DNA from: Deinococcaceae bacterium
Lineage (GTDB): Bacteria > Deinococcota > Deinococci > Deinococcales > Trueperaceae
Direction: 5' to 3'
Length of the DNA stretch: 12,362 nt
Assembly: GCA_040256005.1 (NCBI GenBank)
Contig: JBDZWC010000090.1
Location: 1-12,362, forward strand
Notes under the pieces: model-generated
Seen by the model: only the letters and a program-made list of their open reading frames with translations
What the model was told of the DNA's origin: nothing
Database searches by the model: none
Position numbers and translations under genes: made by a program
Part shown: one piece after another, positions 1 to 5,563 of the stretch
Layout of the letters: each line of letters opens with the position of its first letter
Position numbering within the stretch: position 1 is the first letter of the stretch

Positions 1-436
1 ACCTCTGAACATCGACAATCCGGCAACGCTGCTGCCGCTCGATGACAGCAGCGCCAACGGACGTCGCGCCAAGAGAGCGTTGCGAAACGCGGTGCCCGCC
101 TCGAGCCGGATCTGTCAGGCCTGAACGGGAGACAGCGACTGCCCGCGCCTCGCCCGTGGCGACCGCCACCCGGTCTCCTACGCTCAGGTCTGCCAGTCGC
201 CGCCAGCCGTCCAGGCTGTACCAGCGGTGCAGCGCGGTCGTGCGGCGTGTGCGGCCACTCGCCAGCTTCACTTCGAAGACCTCGCGCTCGCCGACGTGCC
301 AGACCAGGTCGCTGGTCGCCGATACGATCCTGGCGTTCTCGTCCATCGCCAGTACCTCGGGGCGCTGGCCCACGAGCTCCTCGATGGGAACGCGGCGGCC
401 GTCCGCGAGGTCCACCAAAGTGTCACCGGTGACGCA
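1..436 (-). mobile_element. Intein (Hint domain) in DnaB, probably a mini-intein; C-terminal blocks lie beyond the window
   Basis: After SDLRE the expected SGxIEQDAD is replaced in frame by CVTGDTLVDLADGRRVPIEELVG (block A, Cys1 at 436-434), then VFEVKLASGRTRRTTALHRW...GW..LADLSVGDRVAV (block B, TxxH with His at 229-227), a 44-aa linker, and RIVDVQR resembling the start of block F. Confidence 0.93.
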
Positions 437-1594
437 CTCCCTGAGATCAGACAACATGGGCCGCTTGTTCGGCCGGCTCTCCACTGCACGCGACAGCTGC
501 GAGAGGACAAGCACCGGGATGTCGAGCTCGCGCGCCAACGCCTTGAGCCCGCGCGAGATGGCGGAGATCTCCTGCTGCCGGTTCTCGCCCGCGCTGCGCG
601 ACGACGAACCGGCCGACATGAGCTGAAGGTAGTCGATGACCAGCAGATCGAGCCCGTGCTCGTTCTTGAGGCGACGCGCCCGCGACCGCAGCTCCATGAC
701 CGACATGTCGGCGTTGTCGTCGATGAAGATGTTCGCCTCTGAGAGGCGGCCGGCGGTGTCGGCGAGGCGCTGGAAGTCGCGCTCGGTCAGCTGCCCGCTG
801 CGCACGCGCGACATGTCCACGCGGGCCTCGGAGCACAGCATGCGCATGACGAGCTGGATCGCAGACATCTCGAGGGAGAAGATGCCCACGGAGGCTCTGC
901 GGCCGTCCTTGTCTGCCTTGAGAGCCGCGTGCAGCGCGATGTTGAGGCCGAAGGCCGTCTTGCCCATCGACGGCCTGGCGGCCAGCACGTTGAGGGTGGA
1001 GGCGTGCAGGCCCGCCGTGAGCTGGTCTAGCTCGCGGAAGCCCGTCTCGATGCCGGAGACGGGGTTGGGGTTCGTGAAGCGCTCGTTGATCTCATCGAAC
1101 GTCTCGCCGACTAGCTTGTGCATGGTCTCGAAGGCCACGCGGCGCTTCTTCGTCGTGAGGTCGAAGATGCCCTTCTCGGCCAGGTCGAGCACGTCCTCGA
1201 TCGCGATGGACTGATCGTAGGCGGACTGCATGATCCGACCGCTGGCTGCGATGAGCTCACGCAGGGTGGCCTTCTCGAGGACGATCCGCACGTAGCTGTC
1301 CGCGAAGGCGGCTGTAGGTACCTCGTCCGCCAGGCCGATGAGGTAGTTGATGCTGCCCACGCTCTCGAGCTCGCCGGAGGATCTGAGCTCCTCCGTCAGC
1401 GTCACCAGGTCGACGGGGTCGCCGTGGCGGTGGAGCCTCTCCATGGCCCGGAAGATCTTGCGGTGGGCTTCCTTGTAGAAGTGCTCGGGAGTGAGCACGC
1501 CTTCGAGCCCCGCGTAGACCTCGTTGTCCAGCATGATCGCGCCCAGAACGCTCATCTCGGCCTCGAGGTTGTGCGGGGGCGTGCGGCTGTCCAC
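1..1594 (-). CDS. dnaB: Replicative DNA helicase DnaB, intein-containing; 3' end runs off the left edge
   Basis: Manual minus-strand translation, open from 1594 to the edge: (V/M)DSRTPPHNLEAEMSVLGAIML..., Walker A LAARPSMGKTAF, IFSLEMS, Walker B LLVIDYLQLM, NRQQEISAISRGLKALARELDIPVLVLSQLSRAVESRPNKRPMLSDLRE. GTG at 1594 is preferred because it lies 7 nt after a -10 box; the in-frame ATG at 1603 is an alternative. Confidence 0.97.
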   Translation of the reverse strand, partial: MDSRTPPHNLEAEMSVLGAIMLDNEVYAGLEGVLTPEHFYKEAHRKIFRAMERLHRHGDPVDLVTLTEELRSSGELESVGSINYLIGLADEVPTAAFADSYVRIVLEKATLRELIAASGRIMQSAYDQSIAIEDVLDLAEKGIFDLTTKKRRVAFETMHKLVGETFDEINERFTNPNPVSGIETGFRELDQLTAGLHASTLNVLAARPSMGKTAFGLNIALHAALKADKDGRRASVGIFSLEMSAIQLVMRMLCSEARVDMSRVRSGQLTERDFQRLADTAGRLSEANIFIDDNADMSVMELRSRARRLKNEHGLDLLVIDYLQLMSAGSSSRSAGENRQQEISAISRGLKALARELDIPVLVLSQLSRAVESRPNKRPMLSDLRECVTGDTLVDLADGRRVPIEELVGQRPEVLAMDENARIVSATSDLVWHVGEREVFEVKLASGRTRRTTALHRWYSLDGWRRLADLSVGDRVAVATGEARAVAVSRSGLTDPARGGHRVSQRSLGATSVGAAVIERQQRCRIVDVQR

Positions 1595-1601
1595 GTTCGG
1601 C

Positions 1602-1610
1602 ATGCTAACA
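1602..1610 (-). promoter_or_regulatory. Extended -10 element (TGnTAGCAT) of a probable leaderless dnaB transcript
   Basis: Minus strand reads TGT-TAGCAT-gccgaac-GTG: TAnnnT box 7 nt before the start codon, with no Shine-Dalgarno sequence. Confidence 0.6.
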
Positions 1611-1623
1611 CCGGCACCGGTCG

Positions 1624-1629
1624 TAGAAT
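1624..1629 (+). promoter_or_regulatory. -10 element (TAGAAT) of a probable leaderless transcript for the plsY-fusion operon
   Basis: TAGAAT at 1624-1629, 8 nt before ATG 1638, in otherwise very GC-rich sequence; no Shine-Dalgarno sequence. Confidence 0.65.
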
Positions 1630-1637
1630 GGCGGTCC

Positions 1638-3506
1638 ATGGAGTGGTTCCTAGGCGCGGGTATCGCGTTCCTGACGGCGTTCCTGGTCGGTTCGTTGCCG
1701 CTGGGGGCGCGCCTCGTCGAGCGCGTGTCCGGCTGGTCGCCCAACGCCGTGAACCCTCATCTCCTAGGGGTGGAGAACGTCGCCAGGCTGGTGGGCGGCG
1801 GAGTGGCGTTGGGCGCCTTCGGTCTAGACCTTCTCAAGGGCTTGTCGGCCGTGGTAGCCGGTGTGGCCACCAGCTGGTCCGTCGTCTCGTGGCTCACCAC
1901 CGGAGCTCTGTCGCAGCTGCCGCACTTCGGTCCGGGCAACGTGCTCGCGCTGAGCGCTGCCCAATCCGGCGACGTCGCGCTGTTGGTGTCGGCCGGGCTC
2001 CTGGGCGTCGTCGTGGGGCACCTCCACCCGGTGCCGTTGCCCGGCATCGCCGTCGCCCCGCGCGGGCGGGGTACGGCGGTCATCCTCGGTGGACTGGCCG
2101 GTCTATATACCTACGGTGTGGCCCCGCTGTGGTTACTCGTGGTCCCAGTCGCCATGTGGGCCGGTCTGCTGGCCGCCGACGGATACGTGGCTCGCGCCAC
2201 GGTGTGGTCTGGCCTGGGGCTGGCCGCCCTCGGCGCCCTGGCCGCCACCCTACGGGCCGTCTCGTGGGAGGCCGCCTTCGCGCTGGCGCTACTCGCCCTC
2301 ACCATCTTCTGGCGTCACAAGTCGGCGCTGTCGCGCATCAGCGATGGTACCGAGCCCCGGCTGGGAGAGCCGATGCCCGTCCGGGGCATGGACGGCTCGG
2401 TCATGGCGGCGTTCATGATCCACCCGATGAACCTCGAGGACGTCTGGCAGCCCGCCAGCCTCCGTTGGTTCAAGCACGTGCTCGAGCGCACGGTCAAGCC
2501 CGGGCTCCTGCCCGTCGAGTGGGTCAAGCGGCTCTTCCTGCAGGTCAGGCCGCAGCTCACCGGCGTCATCGAAGGGGTCGTGACCAGCGATGGCCGGCCG
2601 CTGCGGGTGCTCCTCGTGGGCACGCCCCTGCTGCCCGACCAGTTCCGCAGCCACCCCGAGGACGCCGAACGCCTGGCGGTGCAGGGCGCGAGGTTCGCAC
2701 ACGAGCTGGGGGCCGAGGTGGTGGGTCTGGGCGCCTTCTGGTCGACTGTCGGCGACAAGGGTAGGAAGGTACAGGAGGCGGTGCCGGAGATCGTGGTTAC
2801 GAACGGCGGTGCCTATACCGCGGCGACCGTCCGGGCCGCGGTGCCCGGCCTGCTCAAGCGTTTCGGCGAGCAGGGCGTAGAACTGAAGCGCACGACGGCG
2901 GCCGTCGTCGGGGCGAACGGTGTCGTGGCGTTCGGGGTGGCACGCATGATCGCTCCCGAGGTGGGCAGGGTGATCCTCGTCGGCCGCGACAAGCAGAGGC
3001 TCAACCGCAGCGCAGCCACCCTGAAGGCGAAGTTCCCCGACACTGATTTCGTGCCCACCACGGACTTCCAGACCGTCGCGTCGGCCGACCTCGTGTTCAC
3101 CGCGACCTCCGACCCCGGCTACGTGCTCTACCCGCAGCACGTCCGGCCGGGCGCCTGGGTCTACGACCTGGGCCGGCCCGCCGATGTCCACCCCAGCGTG
3201 CGCGACGTGCCCGGGGTCGAGATCGTGCCGGGTGGCGTGGTGCGGCCGCCAGGCACGATCCGCTCGCAGATCGACCTGCGTTTCGGCGACGGCCACGTGC
3301 CCGCCTGCCTGGCGGAGACGATGATCCTCGCCGCGACCAAGGAGTACGACCGCCGCAGCTTGGGCGGTCGGACGCGCACCTCCGACATCGAGTTCTTCCT
3401 GCGGGAAGGCGAGCGCCTGGGCTTCGAGATCGTGACCCGCGACGCTCAGGTCGCGTCCGGTGAGCCGCAGGGTCGACGCAGCCGGGCCACGCCACCCAGC
3501 GAGTGA
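1638..3506 (+). CDS. Fusion protein (622 aa): N-terminal PlsY-like (glycerol-3-phosphate acyltransferase family) membrane domain plus C-terminal acyl-ACP-reductase-like NAD(P)-binding domain
   Basis: N-terminus has FLVGSLP, ENVARLVG, DLLKG, GHLHP, RGRGTA, WRHKSALSRI..GTEPR and several hydrophobic helices (PlsY pattern). From about 2403: AFMIHP, GLGAFWS, VTNGGAYTA, Rossmann VVGANGVVA, DLGRPADV, GGVV, PACLAETM, ERLGF, collinear with cyanobacterial acyl-ACP reductase motifs. Start moved from 1524 (overlaps dnaB) to ATG 1638. Confidence 0.85.
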   Translation: MEWFLGAGIAFLTAFLVGSLPLGARLVERVSGWSPNAVNPHLLGVENVARLVGGGVALGAFGLDLLKGLSAVVAGVATSWSVVSWLTTGALSQLPHFGPGNVLALSAAQSGDVALLVSAGLLGVVVGHLHPVPLPGIAVAPRGRGTAVILGGLAGLYTYGVAPLWLLVVPVAMWAGLLAADGYVARATVWSGLGLAALGALAATLRAVSWEAAFALALLALTIFWRHKSALSRISDGTEPRLGEPMPVRGMDGSVMAAFMIHPMNLEDVWQPASLRWFKHVLERTVKPGLLPVEWVKRLFLQVRPQLTGVIEGVVTSDGRPLRVLLVGTPLLPDQFRSHPEDAERLAVQGARFAHELGAEVVGLGAFWSTVGDKGRKVQEAVPEIVVTNGGAYTAATVRAAVPGLLKRFGEQGVELKRTTAAVVGANGVVAFGVARMIAPEVGRVILVGRDKQRLNRSAATLKAKFPDTDFVPTTDFQTVASADLVFTATSDPGYVLYPQHVRPGAWVYDLGRPADVHPSVRDVPGVEIVPGGVVRPPGTIRSQIDLRFGDGHVPACLAETMILAATKEYDRRSLGGRTRTSDIEFFLREGERLGFEIVTRDAQVASGEPQGRRSRATPPSE

Positions 3507-4369
3507 AGGTGTTCCGCGTCGGCGGCCTCACGGGCGAGTCGCCCGAGGTCGCGCGCCTGTGGGAGATGGGCTGCCGAGGCATCCAAGAGGTGGGCGGTGA
3601 GTCCGGCGAGACCGAGTTGATCGCGTACTTCGATGAGCAGGTGGAGACCGGCCTGGTAGGCACGTGGGAGGACCTCGACGAGCACGACTACCTGGCCGAG
3701 TACCGCGCCGGTCTCCAGCCCGTGCGGGCTGGCCGCCTCGTCGTGGCGCCGAGTCATGCCGCGGTGCAGATGAGGGACGGCGAAGCCGTGGTCTGGCTGG
3801 ACCCTGGCTCGGCATTCGGGACCGGCCATCACGAGACCACAGCCATGGCGCTAGAAGCGCTGGGTCTCCTTGACTTGGTGGGGAAGACCGTCCTCGACGT
3901 GGGCTCCGGTTCGGGCGTGTTGGCCATCGCCGCGGACGTGCTTGGCGCCGAGGCCTCGTACGGGATAGACGTCGACCCGGCCACGGTGCTGGTGGCACGC
4001 GAGAACGCCCGCCGCAACCGGTCGCGGGCCCGGTTCGCGGTAGGCACCTTGCCTGCCCCTGGCGCGCGGGGATTCGTCGTCAACCCCGAGGCCAGCGACG
4101 GACTGGGTGACGCCGGCTCGTTCGCGCCGGCCCGCGGTCTGCCGGGCAGGTTCGACGTGATCGTCGCGAACCTCTACGCCGAGCTCCACGCTGCCCTGGC
4201 TGGCGGCTACGCCGCCGCCCTACTGCCGGGAGGGTCGCTCCTCCTCACGGGCGTACTCTCACGGCTAGGCGGCTCGGTCGAGGAGGCGCTGGCAGCGGCC
4301 GGGCTGGGAGTCACCGCGCGCGCGGAGCGCGGGGAGTGGACGCTGCTCGCAGCCGGGGCGCCGGCATGA
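3503..4369 (+). CDS. prmA: Ribosomal protein L11 methyltransferase
   Basis: DPGSAFGTGHHETT, SAM motif VLDVGSGSGVLAIAA, GIDVDP, FDVIVANLYAELH; GTG start overlaps the upstream stop (GTGA). Confidence 0.95.
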   Translation: MKVFRVGGLTGESPEVARLWEMGCRGIQEVGGESGETELIAYFDEQVETGLVGTWEDLDEHDYLAEYRAGLQPVRAGRLVVAPSHAAVQMRDGEAVVWLDPGSAFGTGHHETTAMALEALGLLDLVGKTVLDVGSGSGVLAIAADVLGAEASYGIDVDPATVLVARENARRNRSRARFAVGTLPAPGARGFVVNPEASDGLGDAGSFAPARGLPGRFDVIVANLYAELHAALAGGYAAALLPGGSLLLTGVLSRLGGSVEEALAAAGLGVTARAERGEWTLLAAGAPA

Positions 4370-5145
4370 AGGCGCGCGCGGGCAAGCGCGGTGCAGGCGA
4401 CGTGCAGCGGGCCTGGTCGACATCGGGAGCCAGGGTGGAGCGCATCGACAGGGTGCTCGTCGATCACCTGTCCGACCTCGTCGAGGTCACCGGTCCCGAA
4501 GCTCATCATCTGCGGGACGTGCTGCGGGTACGCGTGGGCGGGTATGTGGAAGCGTTCGACGGCGCCGGCATGCGCGCCCGGGGTGAGGTAGTGGCCGTGA
4601 CCAGGGAGGGCGTGAGCCTGAGGCTGGGCGCGCCGGAGCGCTCGCCCTCGGAAACCCCGCAGGATGTCACGCTGGCCGTTGCCCTGCTCAAGGGCGACAA
4701 GCTGGTGGACGTGATCCGGCCGGCGACGGAGCTGGGCGTGAAGCGCATCGTCACGTTCGTCAGCGTGAACTGCGAGGCCCGGGAGTTATCCGACGTCAAG
4801 CTGTCCCGGCTGCGCCGTGTGGCCCAGGAGGCGGCGAGGCAGAGCGGGCGTTCGGTGGTCCCCCAGGTGGAGGCTCCGGTCGACCTCGCCGACCTCACGG
4901 TCGATGGAGAGGTCGTCGTTGGTGACCCCGCGGCGGACGCCGGGCTGACCGAGCACCTGGATGAGCTGCTGGCGGCGCCCGCGGTCACCTTCGTAACGGG
5001 CCCGGAGGGCGGGCTGAGCGAGCACGAGGTCATGAGCCTCGTAGCGGCCGGGGCGCGAGCCGTGCGTCTCGGACCCAGGGTGCTGCGCGCCGACACCGCC
5101 CCGGTGGCGATGGCGGCGGCGCTGCTGCTGGTCGGGGGCCGCTGA
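4366..5145 (+). CDS. rsmE: 16S rRNA m3U1498 methyltransferase (SPOUT)
   Basis: HHLRDVLR, KGDK...ATELGV, EAARQSGR, GPEGGLS, LGPRVLRADTA. Start is uncertain: ATG 4366 (ATGA overlap with the prmA stop) or GTG 4435 (GGGAG upstream). Confidence 0.94.
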   Translation: MKARAGKRGAGDVQRAWSTSGARVERIDRVLVDHLSDLVEVTGPEAHHLRDVLRVRVGGYVEAFDGAGMRARGEVVAVTREGVSLRLGAPERSPSETPQDVTLAVALLKGDKLVDVIRPATELGVKRIVTFVSVNCEARELSDVKLSRLRRVAQEAARQSGRSVVPQVEAPVDLADLTVDGEVVVGDPAADAGLTEHLDELLAAPAVTFVTGPEGGLSEHEVMSLVAAGARAVRLGPRVLRADTAPVAMAAALLLVGGR

Positions 5146-5146
5146 G

Positions 5147-5563
5147 ATGCGTGTCGCACCTATCAGGTCGGTGGCGCTGCTGGCCCTGGCGTGCGTCGCG
5201 CTGGCGGCCTGCCGGCCGCTGTACCTGCCGCCGGTGCCCGAGTCGCCCACGCAGCCGCGTCACTCGCGGCTGGACGCGAGCTCCGCCTTGGCACTGGTGG
5301 CAGGCAGGCCCGTGTTGACCGTGGTACTGGCCGAGCTGGTGGGGCCGGACGGCGGTGGTTGGCTCTACGTCCAGTGGTTCGGTCCGTCCAACGCCGAGAT
5401 GGCTTCGGACGCCAGCTGGGTGACGGGCAGCGACGTGGGCACGACGATCGAGTTCCCGCTGCCGCCGGACGTGGAACACACGCCCGGCGAGTGGCGCGCG
5501 GCGGTCTCGTACGACGGGTTCCTTCTGCGGCAGTTCCGTCTCGAGGTCCCGGCCGGCGAGTGA
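5147..5563 (+). CDS. Hypothetical lipoprotein (138 aa)
   Basis: Basic N-terminus, hydrophobic stretch and lipobox LAA-C; Pro-rich tether, then a beta-rich domain (WLYVQWFGP...PGEWRAAVSYDG..LRQFRLEV); starts 1 nt after the rsmE stop. Confidence 0.8.
   Translation: MRVAPIRSVALLALACVALAACRPLYLPPVPESPTQPRHSRLDASSALALVAGRPVLTVVLAELVGPDGGGWLYVQWFGPSNAEMASDASWVTGSDVGTTIEFPLPPDVEHTPGEWRAAVSYDGFLLRQFRLEVPAGE

Follow-up and report, generated by a model that had tools for sequence, protein, structure and literature searches.

What does a protein do that joins the fold of a phospholipid acyltransferase to that of an acyl-thioester reductase in a single chain? The question is raised by one gene (positions 1638–3506, plus strand) in a stretch of 12,362 nucleotides, here called the window, which is contig JBDZWC010000090.1 of a Deinococcaceae bacterium (assembly GCA_040256005.1; contig C49 of a 3.1 Mb genome that is 96.8% complete). 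Relatives of the gene carry the label Trueperaceae. Translation of the window gives a single uninterrupted frame of 622 amino acids, and its ATG is the start shared with close relatives of the same length (L002, L003). An earlier reading, made from the letters of the window (the sequence-only reading), had proposed a PlsY-type membrane domain fused in one frame to a domain like acyl-acyl carrier protein (ACP) reductase, AAR. This fusion is confirmed and lies far beyond chance: Pfam PF02660 (PlsY) covers residues 14–234 (E 1.4e-14), and the modeled halves align with PlsY and AAR structures at Z 19.1 and 32.6. As that reading also anticipated, existing automatic names fall short of this architecture, giving only glycerol-3-phosphate acyltransferase or predicted amino acid dehydrogenase. 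On balance, the fusion is probably a membrane-bound acyl-thioester reductase that supplies the fatty aldehyde from which the alkylamine of N-glyceroyl alkylamine phosphoglycolipids is made. From folds, conserved residues, distribution, gene neighborhoods and trees, we infer its activity, its substrate and the link to this lipid.

The C-terminal half has the fold of AAR. An AlphaFold model of the fusion, run on an alignment of 76 orthologs (70 of 120 listed matches, thinned of near-duplicates, plus six loci), has a mean pLDDT of 91.6. Foldseek orders its structural matches as AAR (E 5.8e-19), the carmabin TAD (8e-15), PlsY (1e-7), HemA (2e-6) and shikimate dehydrogenase (1.7e-5). VIA-align superposes the model on AAR with Z 32.6 over 325 residues (root-mean-square deviation, rmsd, 3.6; 22% identity), compared to Z 29.8 for TAD, 15.6 for HemA and 14.1 for shikimate dehydrogenase. 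Among NCBIfam families the best match is PigE (NF053554; E 1.3e-26, residues 327–580), followed by HemA (E 1.1e-9, residues 398–530) and AAR (E 3.3e-9, residues 343–576), all far below their cut-offs; a profile match to the PigE structure 4ppm has E 5.1e-11. The HemA match, a Pfam Shikimate_DH nucleotide-binding match on residues 415–529 and the automatic names would suit an amino acid, shikimate or glutamyl-tRNA dehydrogenase or reductase carried on a membrane anchor. We hold this to be extremely improbable, since the sequence matches to shikimate dehydrogenase and glutamyl-tRNA reductase are confined to residues 380–530 and span the nucleotide-binding part only, with Z of 14–15.6, whereas AAR aligns over both subdomains. 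A better fit to these families, the objection that the sequence-only reading had raised against itself, was looked for and not found, because AAR leads both the Foldseek and the VIA-align rankings.

The catalytic features of AAR are in register as well. The cysteine of the PACLAETM motif, Cys557, aligns with that of FACFAEAM in AAR (6jzu), as had been proposed, and a Ser occupies the same column of the C294S structure 6jzz. It is kept in all 76 orthologs and in 141/141 near-full domains, from 146 wider-family proteins examined. In the loop GANGVVA the first two glycines are invariant and the third position is Ala in 75/76 orthologs, where AAR has GxxGxxG. A Gly-Arg-Asp-x-x-Arg stretch after the second strand lies in register with Ala-Arg-Asn-x-x-Arg of AAR, and NADPH is therefore the likely cofactor, as judged from sequence. 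AAR is reported to reduce acyl-ACP via Cys294 (PMC7089970), and in TamH and PigE an AAR-like domain together with a transaminase is reported to give amines, with acyl-CoA described as not accepted by TamH (PMC9594044, PMC8341465). Both subdomains of AAR (TIGR04058; 6jzq, 6jzu, 6jzy, 6jzz) align with the fusion, including the Thr-x-Gly motif. Unlike AAR, however, the fusion carries a membrane domain, its loop ends in Ala and its score lies below the family cut-off; ADO (PF11266) was not found in this 96.8% complete genome, with a control match in Synechococcus. The PigE N-terminal and TamH C-terminal thioester reductase domains are the best profile match, and the genome encodes a transaminase that belongs to the reductase-fused clade. 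That transaminase is separate and unlinked, though (the Pfam scan of the fusion found no class III transaminase domain, PF00202), no biosynthetic cluster surrounds the fusion, and the gene is a phylum-core gene rather than a natural-product enzyme. The fusion thus resembles AAR and TamH-TR in its working, yet is outside AAR, PigE/TamH and PlsY by their defining features.

The second-best fold, the TAD of the carmabin nonribosomal peptide synthetase (NRPS; 9e4s and others), has the same two subdomains, Cys and Thr-x-Gly, a motif whose role at the catalytic Cys is described in bioRxiv 10.1101/2024.10.28.620694. By analogy, Cys557 could pass an acyl or glyceroyl group to an amine and form an amide instead of reducing the thioester, for example at the amide-linked fatty acid of a glycolipid; an N-acyl hexosamine is reported in Thermus glycolipids (PMC9636437). 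This transfer seems quite improbable to us. AAR outscores TAD in the structure comparisons, the fusion does not sit at the end of an NRPS module, and the TAD residues Asp2102 and Asp2170 correspond, by motif order only, to Gly449/Arg450 and Leu511 here, with Glu at 511 in 14/14 Deinococcaceae and Thermaceae. Amidation by the TAD is itself unproven in the available text of the same preprint.

The N-terminal half has the PlsY fold with a remodeled pocket. It matches Aquifex PlsY (5xj5) by profile (E 6.1e-20) and by structure (VIA-align Z 19.1, 188 residues, rmsd 2.7), and a single-sequence search gave no PDB match. Residue roles were taken from the account in PMC5700162 and mapped through the profile alignment to 5xj5. 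In motif 1, Pro40 stands for Ser35, His41 for Gly36, Leu42 for Asn37 and Glu46 for Thr41, and Arg50 corresponds to PlsY Arg45; in motif 3, His227 corresponds to His177, Ala230 replaces Asn180, and Arg233 and Glu239 are invariant. Likeness to Aquifex PlsY (5xj5–5xj9) lies in the fold, in two parts of the phosphate hole (His92 and the loop of Lys104 and Gly105) and in Ser/Thr142, whereas Ser35, Asn37, Asn180 and His177 are lost or variable and Thr41, Gly36 and Gly102 are replaced. Across the 76 orthologs the acyl-phosphate hole is retained (His92 in 76/76, Arg for Lys104 in 76/76, Gly105 in 75/76) and the glycerol 3-phosphate clamp of Ser35, Arg45, Lys104 and Asn180 is broken (Ser35 in 1/76, Asn180 in 5/76, Arg45 in 61/76). 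The Ser142 position, Thr188 here, is Thr or Ser in 74/76, and the Thr41 position is Glu in 75/76. Because this set is mostly Trueperaceae, residues were recounted by family in 49 distinct sequences from 51 loci. His92 and Lys/Arg104 are present in 49/49 each, Gly102 is replaced by Arg and Gly36 by His or Tyr in 49/49, and Thr41 is Glu in 45/45 Deinococcota and in 0/4 Sysuimicrobiota. At position 177, most Trueperaceae have His or Gln, whereas Phe occupies it in 8/8 Deinococcaceae and Tyr in 6/6 Thermaceae; Asn180 is retained in all 14 sequences of the latter two families. The positions newly fixed in this way point to a PlsY half whose function has changed, and not to one in decay. Where the sequence-only reading had seen a membrane anchor, the membrane fold is borne out, and the half has a conserved, altered pocket of its own.

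Could the fusion simply be a second working glycerol-3-phosphate acyltransferase with a reductase appended? The PlsY fold extends over the whole length of the half, His92, Arg45 and Ser/Thr142 are largely retained, His227 is present here, the K104R variant of Aquifex PlsY is reported to keep 25% activity (PMC5700162), and the canonical PlsY of this genome itself lacks His92. We nevertheless judge it very improbable. Ser35 is lost in 75/76 orthologs and Asn180 in 71/76, and His177 gives way to an aromatic residue in Deinococcaceae and Thermaceae; all three were found nearly indispensable, and Ser142 and His177 are described as binding the 2-OH (PMC5700162). The fusion also scores 39.1 bits against the PlsY family TIGR00023, below the cut-off of 137.2. 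Elsewhere in the genome are PlsX and a separate, near-canonical PlsY (L014:1405–2085, minus strand, G000:C240; 149 bits to Aquifex PlsY), which has Asn where His92 is expected. A third stand-alone PlsY-like gene is degenerate and has no His177 motif (L015:2169–2760, +1 frame on the minus strand; G000:C227:4812–5357, minus strand); similar degenerate copies occur in L236 and L237.

The fusion is distributed as a core gene of the phylum. The reductase half matches 199/201 Deinococcota genomes at E<=0.001 and 196/201 at E<=1e-60, usually once each, including 92/92 genomes of the Deinococcus family and 57/57 of the Meiothermus family. It is fused in 150/150 places listed (open frames of at least 557 amino acids), with 103 further matches outside that listing, so that the phylum-wide occurrence suspected from the window alone holds; a search for shorter forms of the fusion returned mostly fragments. 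Among 14 control genomes, the AAR model matched only Synechococcus, T. thermophilus, D. radiodurans and M. jannaschii. In Ca. Sysuimicrobiota, 75/81 genomes match (a count that takes in two unpublished genomes), and the reductase is unfused, fused or both. Beyond these phyla, 2036 representatives match the family at E<=0.001. A domain scan of 58 of the best 150 family members, picked for length or fusion, found as fusion partners PlsY (21), START/lipid-transport (9), class III aminotransferase (6) and PlsC-type acyltransferase (2). In a FastTree phylogeny of 141 reductase domains, the remodeled fusions form one clade (support 1.00), whose sister clade consists of fusions with unaltered PlsY motifs (0.97); the node uniting the two has 0.99. 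One more PlsY fusion and the two PlsC fusions arose separately. The intact-motif sister clade comprises P0246, P0252, P0266, P0277, P0296, P0313, P0315 and P0336. The family was not found in the viral contigs searched, and plasmid matches were limited to 126 Ralstonia records at ~29% identity with aminotransferase annotations. A literature search, judged by titles and the starts of abstracts and with subscription journals outside its coverage, found no account of this fusion.

The recurrent pairing with acyltransferases bears on another explanation, acyl-phosphate coupling, in which the PlsY half passes acyl-phosphate to Cys557 or the C-terminal half makes acyl-phosphate or another activated donor for the acyltransferase. 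Reductases have been fused repeatedly to intact PlsY and PlsC, and what the PlsY half keeps is precisely the acyl-phosphate hole. Such coupling is nonetheless decidedly unlikely: Thr41, whose hydroxyl is reported to bind the acyl-phosphate carbonyl (PMC5700162), is Glu throughout the Deinococcota sequences recounted, the genome encodes PlsX, and known AAR-fold enzymes use thioesters.

Reduction of a thioester, the activity we favor, agrees with a lipid reported from this lineage. In Thermus and Meiothermus, the main phosphoglycolipid is described as an N-glyceroyl alkylamine, related to a D. radiodurans lipid and serving as a lineage marker (PMC3035268); Moorella thermoacetica is also reported to have N-glyceroyl alkylamine lipids (PMC13274423). 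The third, alkyl chain is drawn as iso-17:0, equal in length to the fatty acids (PMC9636437), and reduction followed by transamination fits because of this match. According to the available text of that source, the enzymes for the third chain had not been identified as of 2022. The fusion is the best candidate for the first step of fatty-amine chain synthesis. In the proposed pathway, acyl-ACP would acylate Cys557, and NAD(P)H, probably NADPH, would reduce the thioester to fatty aldehyde. The PlsY-fold half would anchor the enzyme at the membrane and bind a phosphorylated ligand or a lipid chain, and would no longer acylate glycerol 3-phosphate. A separate class III transaminase (G000:C194:380–1837, minus strand) would then turn the aldehyde into the alkylamine, a step that TamH and PigE assign to their second domain, and a further enzyme, perhaps a protein here called X (G000:C184:62916–63842, minus strand) or the PlsY half, would form the glyceramide.

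The same evidence for a reductase would serve equally if the aldehyde were destined for other lipids, such as long-chain 1,2-diols, alkyl ethers or fatty alcohols; the PlsY half would then take the reduced chain. Truepera, Thermus and Meiothermus are all reported to contain diols (PMC3072082, PMC3035268), and the intact-PlsY sister clade and the separate PlsC fusions tie the reductase family to glycerolipid backbones. We consider such a destination unlikely. Diols are minor in Meiothermus, as reported in PMC3035268, and a serine-palmitoyltransferase-like gene elsewhere in the genome could be another source of diol-type chains. The diol option of the sequence-only reading is weaker than its alkylamine option because diols are reported as unknown in Deinococcus (PMC3072082, with a caveat of method), yet every genome of that family carries the gene.

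The transaminase is the second component of the favored alkylamine route. Among eight class III transaminases in the genome, only the C194 enzyme has PigE as its top family, the remainder being LysJ/ArgD, GabT, HemL or general; it lies on a different contig from the fusion. In a tree of 29 rows, five reductase-fused transaminases belong to a group (100/99) that also takes in the C194 enzyme and its counterparts from Trueperaceae, Deinococcus, Thermus and Sysuimicrobiota (four copies from the last) and that stands apart from LysJ and GabT. HemL was left out of this tree, which has 10 rows more than a first one; the first tree, with HemL and fewer rows, left the node open. A transaminase of a reductase-associated clade, such as a TamH-like route would use, is present in the genome. 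At E<=1e-70, one ortholog is found in 4/4 Trueperaceae and 68/68 Deinococcaceae, and in 1/42 and 0/6 genomes of two thermophile families. At 1e-45, 61/61 Thermaceae match, with the best match set apart from a weaker second, and a relative close to the Thermus copy is present in 4/4 genomes of family f4. In Thermus the candidate follows a 132-amino-acid gene (L067–L085), presumably related to acyl-CoA thioesterases.

Protein X emerged from the neighborhoods of unfused reductases, in the best 80 of 521 confirmed metagenome loci, which are kin rather than independent. X is encoded in 44/80 of these loci; in 39 it immediately precedes the reductase on its strand, out of 60 loci with room upstream. 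None of the 80 contains a PlsY-like frame. X is present in 198/201 Deinococcota and 77/81 Sysuimicrobiota; it adjoins unfused reductases, and where the fusion is the sole form it lies unlinked. Its automatic name is quinate 5-dehydrogenase, and the family is listed as conserved and uncharacterised in Deinococcales (PMC9425974). The model of X (pLDDT 93.8) has AAR as its best match among 48,161 chains (Z 12.9), followed by TAD (12.0) and then 9.2, and Foldseek ranks TAD 5th and AAR 28th. The AAR likeness is one of structure, since X has no match among Pfam, NCBIfam or PDB sequences; profile comparison with the reductase family gives probability 0.1 and E 0.5, and the conserved columns of X contain no Cys. 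A complex prediction for the reductase domain with X scored 0.00, which counts neither for nor against binding. In this genome X heads efp-accB-accC, as in 3/8 thermophile loci listed. The pair of X and reductase often follows a type III pantothenate kinase (13/80) or a helix-turn-helix regulator (12/80) and precedes greA or lysS (L101–L180, L238–L247). Also near X is the serine-palmitoyltransferase-like gene (L182:8782–11117, plus strand, G000:C184; 433 bits against a cut-off of 640). The frame after it has no NCBIfam family, and we take it to resemble the acyltransferase of ceramide clusters. By sequence, sphingolipid- or diol-type synthesis is possible in Trueperaceae.

A bolder version of the pathway would have the three scattered core genes, for the fusion, the PigE-type transaminase and X, make the whole N-glyceroyl alkylamine unit, with the PlsY half as amide synthase. 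The roles of PlsY would be reversed: 1,3-bisphosphoglycerate would serve as a small soluble acyl-phosphate in the kept phosphate hole, the acyl groove would accommodate the alkylamine chain, whose amine Glu46 would hold, and N-(3-phosphoglyceroyl) alkylamine would form. X would be a helper or an alternative amide-forming enzyme. We regard this version as rather unlikely, given that Glu46 is absent in 4/4 Sysuimicrobiota fusions and that no remodeled stand-alone PlsY was found in five genomes with an unfused reductase.

Several observations weigh against the assignment of the fusion to alkylamine synthesis. Its AAR (TIGR04058) score is 36.5 bits, where the cut-off is 449.7. The TAD has the same fold and Cys and is proposed to amidate, with no in vitro turnover in the available text (bioRxiv 10.1101/2024.10.28.620694). 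Nor is the reductase family peculiar to this lineage, being common as well among clusters of Actinomycetota, Chloroflexota, Armatimonadota and Vulcanimicrobiota. As to the transaminase, the third-best family of the C194 enzyme is putrescine aminotransferase, which is outside the transaminase tree; the Thermus copy is not its reciprocal best match; and the Thermus query found no clear ortholog in the single f5 genome tried. Beside the 80 unfused reductases there is no transaminase of the C194 clade, and the one locus with a transaminase has it from another clade. As to the lipid, Truepera has diols, and its polar lipids are not compared with the marker lipid in the available text of PMC3072082. 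For the source organism itself, a lipid of this kind is presumed. Co-occurrence of gene and lipid inside one phylum is weak, because every phylum-core gene is distributed alike. Finally, an unrelated reductase, TabE, is reported to feed an alkylamine likewise (bioRxiv 10.1101/2025.08.11.669332), so the AAR fold is not the sole route to one.

The features of the gene are collected in Table 1.

Table 1. Features of the fusion gene and its upstream region, in window positions.
Feature	Positions	Strand	Residues	Basis or remark
Whole fusion gene	1638..3506	+	622 aa	PlsY-like membrane half and AAR/PigE-type reductase half
PlsY-fold membrane domain, remodeled active site	1638..2372	+	1–245	PF02660, profile against 5xj5, Z 19.1
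Altered PlsY motif 1	1755..1787	+	40–50	Alignment to 5xj5 and ortholog counts
Gly127-His128	2016..2021	+	127–128	His128 is PlsY His92, acyl-phosphate hole; 76/76, 49/49
Altered motif 2, Arg-Gly-Arg-Gly	2061..2072	+	142–145	In place of Gly102-Gly103-Lys104-Gly105
Altered motif 3	2310..2354	+	225–239	Alignment and ortholog counts
AAR/PigE-N-type thioester reductase domain	2400..3449	+	~255 to ~604	NCBIfam, Foldseek, Z 32.6
Thr-Asn-Gly	2799..2807	+	388–390	Counterpart of Thr-Thr-Gly adjoining the catalytic Cys in AAR and TAD; 76/76
Dinucleotide-binding loop GANGVVA (GxxGxxA)	2910..2930	+	425–431	AAR equivalent GATGDIG
Cys557 of PACLAETM	3306..3308	+	557	AAR Cys294; 76/76 orthologs, 141/141 wider domains
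TAGAAT hexamer	1624..1629	+		8 nt before the ATG; putative -10 box, read from sequence

The hexamer lies in the 34-bp gap that separates the start codons of the fusion and the divergent dnaB (window 2–1603, minus strand). Its closeness to the ATG suggests a leaderless mRNA for the fusion, a pattern reported for the phylum (PMC12340547); a sigma-70 scan found no full promoter. The dnaB gene runs off the contig, and past its helicase core there is an intein, matched by Pfam at E 7.6e-7, which is below cut-off; elsewhere DnaB is 684 amino acids long in L003 and 444 in L098. Downstream (window 3503–5563, plus strand), the stop codon of the fusion overlaps the start of prmA (GTGA), followed by rsmE and a 138-amino-acid lipoprotein-like frame with no family, an order kept in other Trueperaceae. 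The neighbors are dnaB, prmA and rsmE in Trueperaceae and different genes in other families, with no lipid cluster in any family inspected.

Thermus, Meiothermus and Deinococcus have N-glyceroyl alkylamine phosphoglycolipids as their major phospholipids. How the third chain is made becomes directly testable, because there are three named single-copy candidates in two genetically tractable model bacteria. If the proposal is true, the database name of a phylum-core gene would be corrected and the family now called quinate 5-dehydrogenase would gain a function. The chemistry of AAR and TamH, known from alkanes and pigments, would reach into primary membrane synthesis, and the phylum would be a source of thermostable enzymes for fatty aldehydes and fatty amines.

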